Counted from the stretch's first letter, positions 14,687 through 22,113 are shown. The stretch: 54,155 nt of DNA from an uncultured Gammaproteobacteria bacterium (GCA_964548885.1 CAZJSQ010000004.1:1-54155), one strand, 5' to 3'. Made by a program: numbers and translations. Notes: generated by a model not told the origin, from the letters alone.

Positions 14687-15709
14687 CTAAACAAGCTTGC
14701 CCGTTCCCGGCTCTTTCAAGCCAAGATGCTGATAGCCCAAAGCGGTAACGATCCGTCCGCGCGGCGAACGGTCCAAAAATCCCAGCTGCATTAAGTAAGG
14801 CTCATAAATATTTTCGATCGTCTCCATTTCTTCGCCGCTCGCGGCCGCGAGCGTATTCAGTCCGACCGGACCGCCCTTGAATTTATTAATGATAGTTTCC
14901 AAGATCCGACGATCAATCAAATCCAACCCGAGTTCATCGACTCCCAACATCTTAAAAGCGGCCAAGCTATCCGCTAAAGAAACTCGGCCGTCGCCTTTCA
15001 CTTCACAATAATCGCGCACCCGCTTTAACAAGCGATTAGCGATCCGCGGCGTCCGTCGACTGCGCTGGGCGATTTCTTTGCGCGCGTCCACGTCCATATC
15101 GATACTCAAAATACCGGCGCTGCGGCCGATAATCTTTTCCAAATCGCTATTTTCATAAAAATTAAGATGATGCGTGACGCCGAAACGGTCTCTGAGCGGC
15201 GCGGATAAAAGACTGGCTAAAGTCGTTGCCCCGATAATCGTAAATTTTGACAGATCTAAACGTAAAGTTCGCGCGCTCGGCCCCTTACCCATAATAATAT
15301 CCAAAGCGTAATCTTCCATGGCCGGATATAATATTTCTTCAACTACTTTTGGCAGGCGATGGATTTCATCGATAAACAGAATATCGCCGGCCTCCAAATT
15401 AGTTAAAATAGCGGCCAAATCACCGCTCTTTTCAATCGCCGGGCCGGAAGTCACCCGGATATTCGCCCCGATTTCATTAGCAATGACATGCGCTAAAGTC
15501 GTTTTTCCCAAACCCGGAGCGCCGTATAATAAAATATGTTCAATCGCTTCCCCGCGCTTGGTCGCGGCCGCGATAGTTATCCCTAAATTTTCCTTAATCC
15601 TCTCTTGACCGACATATTCTTTCAAGGTTTTCGGACGCAAAGATAAATCAAGCGCTTCATCGCCTTGGCGCTCTATCGGACTGATTAAGCGATCAGTTTT
15701 AGTAGTCAT
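14687..15709 (-). CDS. ruvB: Holliday junction branch-migration helicase RuvB
   Basis: [42 protein letters not shown]. Start adjusted to the ATG at 15709. Confidence 0.97.
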
Positions 15710-15789
15710 ATGGTTAATATCATGCTTTATTATACTATCTACTGCCAATATTCAATTTAATTCAATTTTAAACATTGCCAATGTATATT

Positions 15790-18700
15790 TTAAACCTCCC
15801 TGAATTCGCAAATTGAATTAAAATCGCAGAACTGGCACATCGGCGAGGGCGTCGGCGTAAAATTCCGTTTTTTGATGGCCGTGATTTCTTTCATGACGCT
15901 GACGCGCAATTTAGTGATATCTTTGGCCGTCGCCAGAAACGAAATTTTTTCGCCGCTTTCCAGATAATAATAGCTCAAGGCGCTGACTTTCTCTCCCAAG
16001 AACTCTTCCAAAAATAATTGATAAAGAATTAATTGGCGCTTGTCTTTAAATCCTAATTTCGTCCTATTTTTTCCGGTTTTATAATCTATAACCTCTAAAG
16101 TTCCGTCGCCGAGCTTATCAACCCGGTCAATCGCTCCCTTGATGACATCATCTCCGATTTTAAAAGAAAATTTCTTTTCCAAAAATAATATTTCCGTCCC
16201 GTTTGGCGCCGCTTGATAAGCGACTAAAAATTTTTTCAAAGCGTCACGGCCCTTAATCTGGTATTTCTCCCGCTCCTCTTTAGAAGCATAGCCGTCCGCC
16301 TGCCAGAACTCCGCGTATAATTCCATTAATCTCGCTTCGCTTAGAAGATTAGCTCCGGTTTTCCCCGGCGCGTCTTTCCCCGCGGCTGCTCCCGGCCCGG
16401 CGAACAGGTCGCCTTGTAATATTTTCCGCTCGCTTAGGAACGGGAGTAAAAAATTATATAAAGTATTATGGAGCACGCGGCCGAAAACGAGCGACGCCTT
16501 ATCAGCGGAGGCGGGAATTTTTAAAATAAAAGCGTATTTATACTGGAGCGGGCAAGTGGAATAAGCCGCCAATTGCGAAAAAGAAAATTTATCCGGGAGC
16601 GGATATTTATCCGCCGCGCTTTTTTCAAGCGGCGTTAGTTCGCGGGCGTTAAGATAATGCAGATCGCGCAAAAATTCGTTTTTTTCGCTCAGCGTCAGTT
16701 CCGGCCCGATTTCACTCGCGAGCCCCATCTCGGAAATAAAACGCGATGGTTTCTTCTCACGCGCTCCGCCATAATCCTTGGCGCCGGTCAGATATAATTC
16801 CGCTTTCGCTCGCGTTACTGCCACATAAAACAAGCGGCGCTCTTCTTCCAGATGCGCGTCCGACGCTTCCGCCAGCTTTTCGCGAACCAAGGCATCGGGA
16901 ATAGCAATTTTTTCGCCGCGGGCGATGGTCGGAAATTTCTTATCCACCAGGTTAACAATAAAAACATATTTAAACTCCAAGCCTTTGGCGCCATGGATAG
17001 TCATGATCTTAACCGTATCGCTATCGGCAAAATCCAGTTTTAAAGAACCGGTCTCGCCCGCTTCCAGTTCCATATTTATCGCCGAGAGAAAATCTCCCAA
17101 GCGCAAATCCGGTTCAGTTTCTTCCATAGTCTTTATCTTCTGATAGAGCTGGTTTAAAAATGAGAATAATTCCAGGTCCCGGTCGTGATCTAACCCGACG
17201 AGCAGCCCGGAATCGTAAGCGAAGCGCAAAAAAATCTTAGTCGGCTTGGCCGTCGCCGCCATTTTTGAAAACTCTTCAACCAGCGCCAAGAGCTTATTAA
17301 TGTTCTTAATGCTCTCGGGACTGACGCCGGAAATCGCGTTGATGTTCTTTAAAGCTTCATATAAAGACCAAACTTTACGCGCCGCCGTTTTATTGATATT
17401 TACGAGATCAAGATGCGCCACTTTGAATATTTCCATATTCAAGACGCGGAAAAGCGCGGCCGATTCATGATAATTATCCAGCAGCCTGAAAAAAGCTAAG
17501 ATATCCAGAATAATCGGCTTATAATAAAGTCCGCGCCAAGACATAAATTGGTTGGGAATATTTTGGCGGCTCAATTCCTTAACGTAAGCTTCGGCCGTAT
17601 CGTTGGCGCGCACGAGAATCGCGAAATCCGACCAATTAGTTTCTCCTGCGCCCGCCTCCTGGCCGTTATCCGCTTCATGAAGTTCAGTTATCCGCCGCGC
17701 GACGTATGACAGCTCGTCATGAGCCGATTCAAAATTCAAAAACTTCACGGCCGACCCCGCGGATTTCATTTTATTGATCTCGCCTTGAGCGACAAGTTTC
17801 TTATCAATCTTCAATTTAGTTTCCAAGCGGTTGGGATTATTGTTTTGGATAAAGCGATAAGCGTAATCCAGAATCGTTTGGCGCGAACGATAATTCGCCG
17901 TCAAAATTATTTCTTCGGCTCGCGGATAATCGTCTTTAAACTGCATGATATTGGAGAGCGAAGCGCCGCGGAATTTATAAATAGAATTGTGGACTAAGAT
18001 GCCGTTGGCCACAAAATTATGAGTCCGATTGACTTCTAAATCATAAACATAACCTGTTCTCCGGCTGGCTTGGCGGCTGACAATCTGATCATAAATAACG
18101 CCCCCATCCGTTACGATCGGCAAAGACATACCGGGAAAAATATTTTTAGCCGGGACGATTATGGCTTTCAAAAATTTTTCTTTAACCTTGCCGATTTTCA
18201 TCTGCGGCTCTATGAATCCGCCGATTTCTTTTTGAACCCGGCGCGCTATTTTTCCTAAATAGCTTAAATCCGGACTGGTCAAACGCAATCTCCGACCGAT
18301 TTGGCCGGGGTTGATTTTAAAACCCATCTTCTCTAATTTAAAAATCGTCAACTGATCACTGGTGTCGATTGACAATAAATGCGCCACAACGGGATTAATA
18401 AGAAAACCGTCCTTGGCGACCTTGGAATGATATTTCCGATAGCACATTTCCAAATGGATCTTTATTCGCAATTTATTCCCGCGATTTACCGCTTCCAGAC
18501 AATAGGGTGAGGCTTCTAAATCAATATTCAAATCTTGAGCTAAACGATGAACACCGGCCGCCACATCCAATTCTTTATATAATTTGGAACTCCAAATCTT
18601 TTTATCCATTATACCGTCTCTCTCCTGAAAACAAACCGTGGGAATGCCGTATTTCAAAGATAATAATACTTCCTGATGGCGCGCTTCGGCCATAGTTTGA

Positions 18701-19944
18701 TAGCAGCCAACGGCGATAATATTATCAGCCGACCTTTCCAGCCTTAAGCGCAGCGCCAAATCATTAGTCATGCCCAAACGCCAGCCTAATTCCTGCTTAA
18801 ACATCAGATAAACATAAAAATATTCCTTGCCGGAAATTCTGGGCATGAAACAGAACATTTTATGATTATCGGTCGCTGTTATTTTTTTGCCTGATTTAGT
18901 AACGAATGATAATAACAGCGCGGTTTTTTTTGTTTTATTAACATGTCCGACCCGGCTATAACTCAAACTCCCTTTCCCGACGGCCGTCGCCACTTCATCG
19001 CCCGTCTTGATATCTTTAATTTTTTTCCGGCCCGTTTTAGCCAGAATTAAAGTTTCGCCCGGCAAACACTGATCGTCATCGCCCACAACCACTAAATTAT
19101 TTTTCGGCGCGACCAATATTTTTACCAGCTCATATTGTGCCCAATTCGTATCCTGAAACTCGTCAACCATGATATATTTAAACTTAGCGCGATAAAATTT
19201 CAGAATATTTGACCGCTCTTTGAATAACTTTAAGGCATAGACAATCAAATCGCCGAAATCCAAAAAATTATTCTCCAACAATAATTGATTATAAGCATGA
19301 TAAGCGTCGGCTAATTCTCGGATGCGGCCGATTTCCAATTCTTCGCCGTCATCTTCGGCCCCCGCTTTAGGTAATGATTTTGCCTTTTTACCTATTTTTT
19401 TCCCGCTCAATCTGGCGTCCTGATCGGATTCCAACTCTTCCGCGTACTTTAAATATTCCGCGACAGAAATATTTTCATCCTTCAGGCGGGAAAAATGCCG
19501 CAACAGCTCCGAAATAAATTTAGTCGGATTGCCGAGAGGCCGATAATAATCCAAATTGAAACGATTTAAATTTTTCTTGATTAAAACCCATTGCTCGGTC
19601 GAATTTAAGAGTTTAAAACCGGGATTAAGCCCGATATCCAAGCTGAATTCTCTCAGCACTCGTTCGCAAAACCCGTGAAAAGTATTGATCCATAAATCCA
19701 CATAGCCGTAAGGCAAAATCTTATCCGCCCTCTCTTCCAATTCTCCGGCCGCCTTCTCCGTAAAAGTCAAAAGCAGAATCTCGTCAGTTTTTATTTTCTT
19801 CTCCGTTATCAGATAAGCCAAGCGGTTTATCAAAACCGTGGTCTTGCCCGTACCGGCGCCGGCCACTATTAAAAGCGGGCCCTGATCGTGAGTCGCGGCC
19901 GCCCGTTGTTCCTCATTTAATTGTTTCAACAATTCTGAAGGCAT
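15790..19944 (-). CDS. UvrD/REP-family helicase fused to a C-terminal PD-(D/E)XK (AddB/Cas4-like, 4-Cys) nuclease; contains an intein
   Basis: AGAGTGKT, TFTEKAA, VDEFQDTN, VGDDDQ/SIY.FRGA, TIHGAKGLEF, EERRLFYVAVTRA. Nuclease part: FSFSQL..Y..CP, GAIDRVD, IDYKTG, QLILY, C..C.F..IC. Confidence 0.93.
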   Translation of the reverse strand: MPSELLKQLNEEQRAAATHDQGPLLIVAGAGTGKTTVLINRLAYLITEKKIKTDEILLLTFTEKAAGELEERADKILPYGYVDLWINTFHGFCERVLREFSLDIGLNPGFKLLNSTEQWVLIKKNLNRFNLDYYRPLGNPTKFISELLRHFSRLKDENISVAEYLKYAEELESDQDARLSGKKIGKKAKSLPKAGAEDDGEELEIGRIRELADAYHAYNQLLLENNFLDFGDLIVYALKLFKERSNILKFYRAKFKYIMVDEFQDTNWAQYELVKILVAPKNNLVVVGDDDQCLPGETLILAKTGRKKIKDIKTGDEVATAVGKGSLSYSRVGHVNKTKKTALLLSFVTKSGKKITATDNHKMFCFMPRISGKEYFYVYLMFKQELGWRLGMTNDLALRLRLERSADNIIAVGCYQTMAEARHQEVLLSLKYGIPTVCFQERDGIMDKKIWSSKLYKELDVAAGVHRLAQDLNIDLEASPYCLEAVNRGNKLRIKIHLEMCYRKYHSKVAKDGFLINPVVAHLLSIDTSDQLTIFKLEKMGFKINPGQIGRRLRLTSPDLSYLGKIARRVQKEIGGFIEPQMKIGKVKEKFLKAIIVPAKNIFPGMSLPIVTDGGVIYDQIVSRQASRRTGYVYDLEVNRTHNFVANGILVHNSIYKFRGASLSNIMQFKDDYPRAEEIILTANYRSRQTILDYAYRFIQNNNPNRLETKLKIDKKLVAQGEINKMKSAGSAVKFLNFESAHDELSYVARRITELHEADNGQEAGAGETNWSDFAILVRANDTAEAYVKELSRQNIPNQFMSWRGLYYKPIILDILAFFRLLDNYHESAALFRVLNMEIFKVAHLDLVNINKTAARKVWSLYEALKNINAISGVSPESIKNINKLLALVEEFSKMAATAKPTKIFLRFAYDSGLLVGLDHDRDLELFSFLNQLYQKIKTMEETEPDLRLGDFLSAINMELEAGETGSLKLDFADSDTVKIMTIHGAKGLEFKYVFIVNLVDKKFPTIARGEKIAIPDALVREKLAEASDAHLEEERRLFYVAVTRAKAELYLTGAKDYGGAREKKPSRFISEMGLASEIGPELTLSEKNEFLRDLHYLNARELTPLEKSAADKYPLPDKFSFSQLAAYSTCPLQYKYAFILKIPASADKASLVFGRVLHNTLYNFLLPFLSERKILQGDLFAGPGAAAGKDAPGKTGANLLSEARLMELYAEFWQADGYASKEEREKYQIKGRDALKKFLVAYQAAPNGTEILFLEKKFSFKIGDDVIKGAIDRVDKLGDGTLEVIDYKTGKNRTKLGFKDKRQLILYQLFLEEFLGEKVSALSYYYLESGEKISFLATAKDITKLRVSVMKEITAIKKRNFTPTPSPMCQFCDFNSICEFREV
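17986..19068 (-). mobile_element. 361-aa intein inserted in helicase motif III
   Basis: Interrupts GDDDQ|SIYKFRG. Block A CLPGET, block B TATDNH, blocks F/G VYDLEV..THNFVANGILVHN, followed by Ser+1. Confidence 0.96.
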
Positions 19945-20018: not shown

Positions 20019-21284
20019 TTAAAATTTCAAAATACTTTTGAACTTGTCAGCTCCAGCCCGGCCGATCAAAGCCAGATTCAAACCGCTGTCCTTAAATATC
20101 TTTTTGGCCACGGCGCGCAACTCGCTCGCCGTCACCTTATTTATCTTCTTCAGAAATTCTCCCGGCGTCATTATTTTTCGGCGCAAAACCGCCTGGCGCG
20201 CGTACCAAGTCGCGAGATTATCGGTCGCTTCCATTTGTAACAACAATTTGCCTTGCAATAAGTCCTTGGCGCGTTTCAGCTCCGACGCGCCGACAAGTTC
20301 CGTCGTCAGATTTTTATATTCTTTCAAAATAATCTTAATCGCCGCTTCCGTTTTCGCGATCGGTACGCCGGCTTGCGTCGTCAGATAACCGGAATCGGAA
20401 TATGTCTCATTTATAGTCCGAACATAATAAGCCAAACCGTGGCGTTCGCGCAGACTGATGAATAAACGCGAGCTCATCGAGCCGCCGAGAATTATGGACA
20501 ATAGCTTGATCTTGAACTCATCCGGATGCCCGATTGGATAGGCGCGGACGCCCAAAGACATATTTATTTGATCGGTTTTTTTATAAACGACCCGCGTCTG
20601 CGGCGTTTTCTGGGTCTCTCGGACCGCCGGCTTGTTCCGCCACTTGTTTGCTTTAAATTCAGAAAACATCGCCGCGGCCGCTTTTTTCGCTTCCTCTTTT
20701 ATTCCGCCGACTAAAATAATATACGTCGATTTAGAACCGTATTGCGTTTTTAAATATTTAATAAAATCGGCGCGCTGGAAACCAGAAATGTTTTTCTTGG
20801 TGCCGATAGTTTCCCAACCGGCCGGAGTATCGCCGTAAAGACAGGATTCAAAAACGTCTTCCACGTGCATCATCGGATTGTCCTCATACATATTCAATTC
20901 TTCGATGATAACGCCTTTTTCTCTCTCGATCTCCGCCGTTTCGATCTTAGAATTCAAAAGCATGTCGCTTATAATATCAAGAGCCGCCGGCAATTTTGAC
21001 GCCGCTACCTTGACCCAGTAACCGGTAAATTCTTTGGCCGTAAAAGCATTATATTCTCCGCCGAGGGAATCCAGTTCGCTGGCCAGCGCTAAAGTGTTCG
21101 GGCGCTTAACCGTTCCCTTAAAAAACATGTGCTCCAAAAAGTGAGACAAGCCGTTACTCTCGGCGGTTTCATACTTAGAACCGGCCTTGATTATGATTAA
21201 AGCGGTCACGGTCGGCGCTCCTTTTATCGGTACCGTAATCAACGGCATCTTATTTGACAAAATATTGACTTTATATCTATTCAT
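20019..21284 (-). CDS. M16 (pitrilysin-family) zinc peptidase
   Basis: Inverted zinc motif HFLEH, NAFT, E..VIIEE, SSRLF..LRE..GLAY. Start adjusted to 21284. Confidence 0.95.
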   Translation of the reverse strand: MNRYKVNILSNKMPLITVPIKGAPTVTALIIIKAGSKYETAESNGLSHFLEHMFFKGTVKRPNTLALASELDSLGGEYNAFTAKEFTGYWVKVAASKLPAALDIISDMLLNSKIETAEIEREKGVIIEELNMYEDNPMMHVEDVFESCLYGDTPAGWETIGTKKNISGFQRADFIKYLKTQYGSKSTYIILVGGIKEEAKKAAAAMFSEFKANKWRNKPAVRETQKTPQTRVVYKKTDQINMSLGVRAYPIGHPDEFKIKLLSIILGGSMSSRLFISLRERHGLAYYVRTINETYSDSGYLTTQAGVPIAKTEAAIKIILKEYKNLTTELVGASELKRAKDLLQGKLLLQMEATDNLATWYARQAVLRRKIMTPGEFLKKINKVTASELRAVAKKIFKDSGLNLALIGRAGADKFKSILKF

Positions 21285-21396
21285 ATAATTATTCGGCATT
21301 TTAAATGCCAGATCGTTCTCATGTTTTAAATTTACCACATCTTTGATATAATTCAAAGTAAGGAAATCTGCCAATCATCATTAATTTAGGAAAAAT

Positions 21397-22113
21397 ATGC
21401 CTTATAAAATAAGCGACCGGAATTTCGTCCTGAACCATAGCAAACAATATAAGATTCTTCGCGTCAAGGACATGCTTGATGAAGAAAAACCGCGCGAAAA
21501 AATGGTTAAAGACGGGGCCGGATCGCTTAGCTCCGCCGAACTTTTAGCTATCGTTCTGGGCGTGGGCACGAAAAAAGAAGAAGTATATTCTATGTCCAGC
21601 CGTTTGCTGAGAGAATACGGGGAAAAAGGCATCGCCTACCAGAAAGACCCGAGCGTTATTGAACGAGATTTAAAAATTCCTTTGGTAAAGGCCTGCCAAA
21701 TAGTCGCCTGTTTTGAGCTTGGCCGCCGTTTTTACCAGAAAAAACCCGGAGGATCAATCACCGTCAGGACCGCCAAGCAAGCTTTTGAATACTTAAAAGA
21801 TATGGGCAGCCTTAATAAGGAGCAATTCCGCGGCCTCTATCTTAATACGCATTATCAGCTCATCCATGACGAAGTCATTTCCATCGGTACCTTAGATTCT
21901 TCCTTGGTTCAAGCGCGTGAAGTCTTCCGTCCGGCCCTGGAATATTCCGCCGCCGCCCTTATCATCGCCCATAACCATCCTTCCGGAATGATTAAAGCGA
22001 CTAAGGCCGACATCGAAATAACCAACAAGCTGATCGAAGCCGGAAATATCCTGGATATTGAAGTTTTAGATCATCTCATTATCGGTAAAAATAAATTCGC
22101 CAGTATTATTTAA
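21397..22113 (+). CDS. radC: RadC/JAB-domain protein
   Basis: KPREK....G...LS.AELLAI.LG.G, KACQI.A.FEL, E.FR, HNHPSG, LDHLII. Confidence 0.93.
   Translation: MPYKISDRNFVLNHSKQYKILRVKDMLDEEKPREKMVKDGAGSLSSAELLAIVLGVGTKKEEVYSMSSRLLREYGEKGIAYQKDPSVIERDLKIPLVKACQIVACFELGRRFYQKKPGGSITVRTAKQAFEYLKDMGSLNKEQFRGLYLNTHYQLIHDEVISIGTLDSSLVQAREVFRPALEYSAAALIIAHNHPSGMIKATKADIEITNKLIEAGNILDIEVLDHLIIGKNKFASII

Follow-up and report, generated by a model that had tools for sequence, protein, structure and literature searches.

We analysed a window of 54,155 nucleotides, deposited for an uncultured Gammaproteobacteria bacterium (GCA_964548885.1, CAZJSQ010000004.1:1-54155), in which an intein interrupts a helicase gene on the minus strand. 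The host gene (positions 15790..19944, minus strand) is the sole long open reading frame (ORF) spanning the site and encodes the intein-containing precursor of a UvrD/PcrA-type helicase, 1384 amino acids (aa) long. Pfam matches on this ORF comprise UvrD-helicase (4.4e-72), UvrD_C (5.1e-52), PDDEXK_1 (7.4e-32), and Intein_splicing at residues 300-653, the C-terminus of the helicase being a PD-(D/E)XK nuclease domain of the AddB/Cas4-like kind. Throughout the 0.79-Mb, 95%-complete genome, PF00580 matched this gene only, leaving it the sole UvrD-type helicase. The intein itself (17986..19068, minus strand, 361 aa) belongs to class 1 by its translation and its matches to Pfam and TIGR models, running from C1 to H360-N361 with Ser at +1, and it splits helicase motif III (GDDDQ|C...HN|SIYKFRGA): the N-extein (residues 1-292; 19069..19944, minus strand) ends with the first half of the motif, VVGDDDQ, and the C-extein (residues 654-1384; 15793..17985, minus strand) starts with the second half, S-IYKFRGA. 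Translation of 17986-19068 yields 361 stop-free residues from CLPGETL to ILVHN, directly followed by SIYKFRGA, and the only ORFs antisense to the intein are two of 62 aa each. An initial annotation of the window had placed an intact splicing domain in motif III, and its coordinates proved exact; comparison with intein-less alleles, which it had proposed, agrees, as 27 of 30 relatives carry a helicase gene that is contiguous in DNA, aligns to query residues 1-293 and 654-1384, and reads GDDDQ-[A/S]-IYKFRGA across the empty junction.

The two ends of the intein form a complete splicing (Hint) domain. Its N-terminal part (intein residues 1-75; 18844..19068, minus strand) contains C1 of block A and T66-D-N-H69 of block B, the T66-x-x-H69 pattern, and matches TIGR01445 intein_Nterm over residues 1-72 at 36.9 bits (cut-off 24.5). 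Its C-terminal part (residues 307-361; 17986..18150, minus strand) contains blocks F and G, ends in VHN, matches TIGR01443 intein_Cterm over residues 340-361 at 35.2 bits (cut-off 15.6), and aligns with mini-inteins in the Protein Data Bank (PDB) over residues 305-361. Pfam Intein_splicing (PF14890) scored 64.8 bits (cut-off 35.8, E 1e-17). In an alignment of 85 homologues, C1, T66, H69, and N361 do not vary and at least 90% of sequences share H360; H360-N361 is followed by Ser+1 (S654), and the +1 residue of intein carriers is Ser or Cys. The AlphaFold2 model of the whole intein, built from the 85-sequence alignment, has a mean predicted local distance difference test (pLDDT) of 94.9 and a predicted template-modelling score (pTM) of 0.91, and Foldseek matched it to Hint-fold proteins only, mostly inteins, with PI-SceI, hedgehog, and BIL domains included and 7qsu as the best match (1.5e-7). 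It is near certain that this is a real class-1 intein, and it presumably has to splice because its host is the only UvrD-type helicase gene of the genome and its motifs are intact.

Between the two Hint parts, after block B, lies an insert of about 245-248 aa. The initial annotation had noted that this middle lacks LAGLIDADG and HNH motifs, which Pfam bears out: at E <= 10 the middle 248 aa matched neither LAGLIDADG_1/3, Hom_end, HNH, nor any other family. NCBIfam and PHROGs likewise matched the Hint parts and left the insert unmatched, and searches of PDB sequences (phmmer and two profile searches) reached the Hint ends only. The annotation had also read a GIY-YIG-like motif, YFYVYLM-x6-WRLGMT-NDLALRL...MAEARHQE, which corresponds to intein residues 83-133 (about 18670-18822, minus strand) and opens the part of the insert treated below as a GIY-YIG-like module (intein residues 80-150; 18619..18831, minus strand), delimited by predicted structure and profile alignment.

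The insert is a real conserved family. In a word-indexed search with 1701 candidates of 761-2422 aa, 141 proteins reached E <= 1e-3, and PF14890 together with UvrD-family domains occurred in all 120 matches listed. An exhaustive search of 1.84 billion representatives returned 152 proteins at E <= 1e-3, of which 49 reached <= 1e-10 and 19 reached <= 1e-30; when 32 of these matches were scanned with Pfam, 22 were UvrD-family proteins, 4 had Hint or intein domains only, 4 had no family, and the other two were a spurious yeast repeat protein and a tRNA-synthetase fragment. Six apparent free-standing homologues (P0202, P0247, P0260, P0267, P0166, P0264) were rejected as such and read as intein fragments from short contigs. 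The tRNA-synthetase fragment (P0229, 332 aa) is an observation apart: its class-I synthetase portion (PF00579, residues 8-92, with KMSKS) is fused straight to the GIY-YIG-like module without an N-terminal Hint part, and a chimeric assembly, a recombination product, or use of the module in a different setting could each explain it.

At its front the insert is predicted to fold as GIY-YIG, the superfamily that the initial annotation had proposed, and not as LAGLIDADG. An AlphaFold2 model of the insert alone, made with 64 insert-only sequences from genome loci, reached pLDDT 87.7 and pTM 0.82. The core of its module (84-140) consists of a strand at 84-91, a strand at 95-101, a helix at 104-111, a strand at 116-123, and a helix at 126-140. 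Sokolowska et al. (PMC3045582) describe the GIY-YIG core as a hairpin, an 'arginine helix', a 'linker strand', and a 'glutamate helix', and because the modelled elements follow the order given there, the module has the GIY-YIG core fold. The top structure-search matches for this part of the insert were Slx1, HIGLE, and I-TevI, and five of the 50 structure-search rows listed start within the first 10 model residues of the insert. We take HIGLE and PD-T4-3 to be GIY-YIG enzymes. Among predicted viral structures (BFVD), the insert matched an unnamed 924-aa protein (E 3.7e-10, TM score 0.63 on the query) and a Siphoviridae 'DNA 3'-5' helicase' (1.7e-7); 25 of the 50 BFVD rows are descriptively named, as GIY-YIG (14), MUG113 (2), homing or intron endonuclease or NUMOD (5), and other proteins (4). 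Feature neighbours in the ESM Atlas are viral clusters, some with T5orf172 (11% and 48% of members) or SegE_GIY-YIG, and are taken as a lead only. One further BFVD entry, the Myoviridae 'adenine specific DNA methyltransferase' A0A8S5TZY8 (782 aa), matches over 126 insert columns (E 8.6e-7, 21% identity), so the module or the whole intein may occur in non-helicase proteins too.

A fold resemblance of this kind could in principle be coincidental: the insert might be a LAGLIDADG domain that has degenerated, or have a new fold that is not that of a nuclease, and happen to run beta-beta-alpha-beta-alpha. The PDB search of the insert model counts against a GIY-YIG assignment: Foldseek found nothing at E <= 0.001, its top rows were LAGLIDADG meganucleases such as I-SmaMI (E 0.03-0.1), and UvrC GIY-YIG domains (1ycz, 1yd5) appeared only at E 0.5, with a TM score of 0.43 on the target. 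We rejected a LAGLIDADG identity drawn from these rows, as their probabilities of 0.12-0.2, TM score of 0.18, and root-mean-square deviation of about 16 Å over ~260 columns are those of non-superpositions, and no HNH or beta-beta-alpha-Me structure stood among the fold matches listed. The absence of any LAGLIDADG or Hom_end family at the permissive Pfam threshold and the overwhelming share of GIY-YIG proteins among the BFVD matches also speak against coincidence. Topology alone, moreover, does not account for the outcome of the profile comparison that follows.

For that comparison, templates were drawn from PF01541 and PF10544 matches in same-order and same-phylum genomes (19 small GIY-YIG proteins, 10 UvrC N-termini, and 10 T5orf172 domains), and the hhalign query was the module trimmed to intein residues 80-155, with a profile that uses 57 of the 64 sequences. 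Against the small GIY-YIG proteins the module aligned from the hairpin through the Glu helix (Prob 88.6, P 2.6e-6, 53 columns); against T5orf172 it aligned over 28 columns (P 1.3e-3), and against UvrC over the Glu helix only (P 0.083). The whole insert against T5orf172 gave a weak match (Prob 6%, P 0.0059). The template families set against each other gave 2e-4 (small vs UvrC), 3.5e-5 (small vs T5orf172), and 0.055 (UvrC vs T5orf172), all of which the match between module and small proteins beats. Four reversed templates gave P 0.019-0.41 and 30 column-shuffled templates a minimum of 0.01 and a median of 0.29, so that a P of 2.6e-6 stands against at least 0.01 in all 34 controls, and coincidental resemblance is in our view very improbable. 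The annotation's narrower label of T5orf172-like fits less well, as the module lies closer to small proteins of the Slx1/YhbQ type. In some same-order genomes (among G419-G430), small free-standing GIY-YIG genes with ORFs of ~80-115 aa are numerous, the count of PF01541 matches reaching 11 in G426. Several have in-frame stops, and these genes are the best profile match to the module.

The register of this alignment assigns the catalytic positions, and the codons of Y87, R97, R107, and E133 were verified by hand in the DNA sequence. Y87 (18808..18810, minus strand), invariant in 85 sequences, falls on the GIY tyrosine, the proposed general base; R97 (18778..18780, minus strand), invariant in the 64 insert sequences, occupies the position of the YIG tyrosine; G99 falls on the YIG glycine and T101 on the next Thr; R107 (18748..18750, minus strand) aligns with the invariant profile Arg of the 'arginine helix'; and E133 (18670..18672, minus strand) aligns with the profile Glu of the 'glutamate helix', the proposed metal ligand. 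The Arg and Glu named in the initial annotation thus map to active-site positions in the profile alignment. This alignment, together with secondary structure, is the basis of the residue mapping, and it stops ahead of the late-Asn region. That a divergent GIY-YIG-superfamily domain forms the nuclease module of this intein is, in our judgement, very probable.

Several points weigh against an active enzyme, and they are those expected if the module were a dead relic, catalytically inactive and kept because the precursor needs it to fold or splice, or put to new use in binding DNA or in regulation, where it might, for example, tune splicing of the helicase on DNA. The YIG tyrosine is replaced by Arg97, and the template His at Arg+4, a 'proton shuttle' His or Tyr in other enzymes, aligns to Glu111. 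Curated models of the family do not recognise the module: there is no Pfam GIY-YIG or T5orf172 match to the intein protein even at E <= 10, PF01541 touches only 2 of 10 family members (best E 0.029), and genome-wide searches miss the intein, PF01541 finding two other loci and PF10544 nothing at E <= 1e-5. Lys at the position of the YIG tyrosine nevertheless goes together with activity in one enzyme: Hpy188I naturally has Lys73 there, in contact with the scissile phosphate, its GIY tyrosine has been proposed as general base, and its Glu binds a single metal (PMC3045582). The T5orf172 alignment has an invariant K-x-G-x-T where the intein has R-x-G-x-T, a basic residue at the YIG tyrosine in both.

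Conservation and selection also run counter to an inactive module. In the 85-sequence alignment Y87 and E133 never vary, and at least 90% of sequences share R97, G99, and R107; among the 64 insert sequences, which share 23-76% identity, M89, R97, G99, E133, K139, Y140, P143, and F147 are invariant and R107 is again at least 90% conserved. Residues with a role in catalysis only (Y87, R107, E133, and G99) are the best-conserved positions of the insert, and they are kept across Patescibacteria, other phyla, and a coliphage, R107 excepted in the last. The coliphage intein, at 23% identity, keeps Y87, L88, M89, G95, R97, G99, A129, E133, and Y140-G-I-P143; its invariant Arg-helix column is R109, not R107, and its C-terminal module is strongly diverged. 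Relative to the nearest public relative, a metagenome-assembled genome (MAG) of Candidatus Falkowbacteria whose insert is 96% identical, the ratio of nonsynonymous to synonymous substitution rates (dN/dS) comes to 0.04 for the GIY-YIG-like module and 0.10 for the C-terminal one, with values of 0.10-0.13 for the Hint parts and 0.07-0.09 for the exteins. The GIY-YIG-like module is under purifying selection, and its dN/dS is the lowest of these parts.

The remainder of the insert (intein residues 151-306; 18151..18618, minus strand) is predicted to form two helices and then a compact alpha/beta module. For this C-terminal module, structure searches returned only generic alpha/beta matches (BMC shell, ACT, eIF1), the ESM Atlas gave no lead, and no NUMOD, helix-turn-helix (HTH), or other recognisable DNA-binding family matched it. 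The initial annotation had described a DNA-binding tail here; a tail module is present, it belongs to no recognisable DNA-binding family, and we propose residues 151-306 as a candidate DNA-recognition part.

We found the intein to be patchily distributed among close relatives. A full-length copy occurred in 10 of 400 other genomes sampled from the phylum (E <= 2.2e-28), and 14 more matched the generic Hint ends only. Among the 30 relatives, one of 18 same-genus and two of 12 same-order genomes are carriers, and the remaining 27 are empty. In a quick maximum-likelihood IQ-TREE phylogeny of the exteins (29 rows), the query genome (G000) is sister to the empty G407 with an SH-aLRT support of 99, and the other same-genus carrier, G414, is sister to the empty G409 with a support of 97 in a separate subclade, the exteins of G414 and G409 being 92% identical. 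Because the two carriers in the genus each have an empty sister in a different subclade, intein presence changed at least twice recently, by gain or loss, within one genus. At synonymous sites, divergence from the nearest relative amounts to 0.192 for the intein (44.5/232 sites) and 0.336 for the exteins (226.7/674; Fisher p 2e-5), which fits an intein whose common ancestor is more recent than that of the host gene. Both the empty sisters and this apparently younger age argue against an inactive relic.

The case for recent transfer meets counter-evidence of its own. Constraint, instead of transfer, could be the reason why the intein has diverged less at synonymous sites, and no co-conversion tract was found near the point of insertion in the most closely related intein-bearing/empty pairs, divergence in the 20-codon windows on each side of the junction being no greater there than in an empty/empty pair. 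The G+C content at third codon positions differs little between intein (45.7) and extein (51.5), a contrast too weak for composition to serve as an argument for foreign origin. Intein and extein identities of carriers are also similar (71.5% vs 71-77% for G414), which fits long vertical residence as well. The missing tract and these similar identities both suit a module that no longer cuts DNA. With the conserved residues, the selection on the module, and the empty sister genomes on the other side, we consider an inactive module unlikely, and judge it somewhat more likely than not that the intein still functions as a homing endonuclease.

An active nuclease might also serve ends other than homing, acting together with the helicase precursor or as a free enzyme in repair, in recombination through Slx1-like junction cutting, or in defence, with the intein kept because it benefits the host. 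Its nearest structural and profile neighbours are indeed Slx1 and small YhbQ-type proteins rather than homing enzymes of the I-TevI type, and its host is a repair helicase-nuclease, the only helicase of its type in the genome. The absence of the intein from 27 of the 30 close relatives means that a host benefit is not general, and the module is almost confined to inteins at one site (22 of the 32 sampled matches being UvrD-type and most others fragments), the signature of a site-specific selfish element. A role of this kind therefore seems to us improbable, and homing remains the function we favour.

The residue after the intein varies among alleles in a way that bears on homing. In the genus of the query, the empty alleles have Ala (GCN) at +1 in 17 of 17 cases (GDD[DN]Q-A-IYKFRGAS) and the two carriers have Ser (TCT, TCG); of the 10 empty alleles from the same order, 6 show Ser and 1 shows Ala at this position, and the pattern did not parse the other 3. 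Alanine is unable to act as a +1 nucleophile, so gain of the intein would have had to bring a Ser codon along, and an Ala+1 allele may protect against productive intein invasion.

The family reaches well beyond this genus. A one-peptide-pattern search of a bacterial and archaeal collection with one genome per species confirmed 162 loci among 181 candidates, and the best 80 of the 162 lie mostly in Patescibacteria (Falkowbacteria, Paceibacterota, Nealsonbacteria, and, at 25-28%, Saccharibacteria), with further hosts in Omnitrophota, Saganbacteria/Margulisiibacteriota, and Elusimicrobiota. Full-length copies at less than 60% identity occur in 39 phage records (25.7-26.8% in the 25 listed), from phi92-like coliphages and phages of Campylobacter, Klebsiella, Serratia, and Salmonella. 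The initial annotation had called the architecture rare; with these loci and phage records it is better described as undocumented. Some loci (L032, L033, L034, L039, and others), with helicase and intein 58-76% identical, also bear the title 'uncultured Gammaproteobacteria bacterium'; on these MAG records the title looks like a default or an error, the query window being Falkowbacteria-like. One MAG, G276 (L006 and L026; also L089, L092, and L105), has at least two helicase genes with inteins of this family, one a full-length copy on contig C30 (33% identity to the query) and the other split across the contig ends C25/C21 (39-48%).

Together these data suggest how the element may work. The intein would excise itself from the precursor by means of C1, the block-B TxxH, the terminal HN, and Ser+1, rejoining GDDDQ with SIYKFRGA and leaving motif III intact. 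The intein protein would then recognise the uninterrupted motif-III DNA of an intein-free allele, probably through its C-terminal module, and cut it with a single GIY-YIG active site in which, by analogy with GIY-YIG enzymes, Y87 would act as general base, the scissile phosphate would be gripped by both R97 and R107, and a single metal ion would be bound by E133. The break would then be repaired from the allele that has the intein, which copies in the intein along with the Ser+1 codon. Taken whole, this account of a bifunctional class-1 intein that homes by means of a GIY-YIG module at the usual endonuclease site is one we lean towards with modest confidence.

The closest counterparts are class-1 inteins with a LAGLIDADG nuclease, such as PI-SceI, PI-PfuI, and the Tli and Pho VMA inteins, which share with this one a Hint domain with C1, TxxH, HN, and a +1 nucleophile, a nuclease placed in frame after block B, and a patchy distribution that fits homing; they are also the best whole-model Foldseek matches (7qsu, as above, then 1dfa and 1vde). 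They differ in the nuclease, which here is GIY-YIG-like, with a single active site, presumably a monomer that nicks the strands in turn, and has no saddle. The 'fractured genes' of Dassa et al. 2009 (PMC2677866), in which free-standing GIY-YIG genes lie between the halves of split inteins, also tie a GIY-YIG nuclease to the endonuclease insertion point of an intein; there the GIY-YIG or Vsr-like nuclease is a separate ORF within a split intein, whereas here it is fused in frame within a contiguous one. Unlike I-TevI, I-BmoI, and the Seg proteins, GIY-YIG homing enzymes that belong to group I introns or to free-standing phage genes, the present module is encoded in a protein-splicing element and not in an intron, has Arg for the YIG Tyr, and is joined to a recognition module without NUMOD or HTH match. 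Slx1 and small YhbQ proteins (UPF0213, URI-type) differ in being stand-alone cellular proteins with a canonical YIG Tyr, no Hint domain, and no site-specific mobile context. Hpy188I shares a basic residue at the YIG tyrosine (Lys73 there, Arg here) but is a dimeric type II restriction enzyme from an unrelated context (PMC3045582). The UvrD/Rep intein of a phi92-like coliphage (Escherichia phage JohannJBalmer, MZ501084) belongs to the same family and sits at the same motif-III site: by tblastn it aligns over its full length at 26.8% identity (E 9e-16) and keeps the YGIP motif, its annotation as an 'intein-containing UvrD / Rep family helicase precursor' with an 'intein' mature peptide leaves the nuclease type unnamed, the phage helicase has no PD-(D/E)XK domain, and the C-terminal module is strongly diverged.

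Previous work has placed GIY-YIG nucleases outside inteins. Papers of 2006 and 2009, by Dunin-Horkawicz et al. and Dassa et al., state that GIY-YIG does not occur in inteins; the 2009 paper (PMC2677866) words this as 'not known to be present in inteins', and its authors proposed fractured genes as a route to new types of intein nuclease. Novikova et al. 2016 (PMC4760082) list 16 UvrD inteins, with the nuclease left untyped in that list, and in the accessible text of a 2020 review (PMC7765530) GIY-YIG figures solely among homing endonuclease families in general. A 2025 preprint on actinobacteriophage inteins (10.1101/2025.01.02.630785) reports LAGLIDADG, HNH, Vsr-like, and endonuclease-VII-like intein nucleases; it also names 'GIY-YIG' once among intein-associated types, which tells against novelty, citing older papers only and offering no example in the text accessible to us. 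Full-text searches of the openly accessible literature found no description of an in-frame GIY-YIG intein, and the family is widespread yet apparently undescribed.

The surroundings of the locus and other inteins add further observations. Read from translations, a RuvB-like AAA+ protein lies downstream of the helicase gene (14687-15748, minus strand), and an M16-type peptidase (20019-21374, minus strand) and a RadC/JAB-like protein (21397-22113, plus strand) lie upstream. Two more Intein_splicing matches occur in the same genome, at C18:1304-2218 (minus strand) and C2:9243-10511 (plus strand), in ORFs of 738 and 1122 aa, and a search of the genome with P0001 found no match to the insert of the helicase intein at either. 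Some UvrD-family helicases hold two inteins, the one in motif III and a second farther upstream (P0148, P0160, P0216, P0173, P0223). The domain of the second intein is LAGLIDADG in P0148, P0160, and P0216 and HNH in P0173; in P0223 the upstream intein (224-516) has a DUF559/MTES_1575 Vsr-like domain at residues 409-472, which would make this a contiguous intein with a Vsr-like nuclease in frame.

The families of homing endonucleases have been regarded as divided between element types, LAGLIDADG and rarely HNH going to inteins and GIY-YIG to free-standing genes and group I introns. An intein with GIY-YIG in frame breaks this partition and supports the idea that inteins can acquire any free-standing nuclease that lands in them. 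If our reading is true, this would be the contiguous arrangement that the 'fractured gene' model predicts, and it would offer a new compact, monomeric scaffold for site-specific nucleases. The system is experimentally tractable because relatives occur in Escherichia coli phages of the BASEL collection, and it would allow the study of a single-active-site nuclease tethered inside a splicing domain. The widest view, to which we give equal weight for and against, is of a large undescribed intein family with in-frame GIY-YIG homing that would be active today among bacteria of the candidate phyla radiation (CPR), Omnitrophota, and large coliphages, always in motif III, with hosts answering by Ala+1. 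The Ala+1 codon fixed in the empty alleles of this genus is a candidate host-side immunity to intein invasion.

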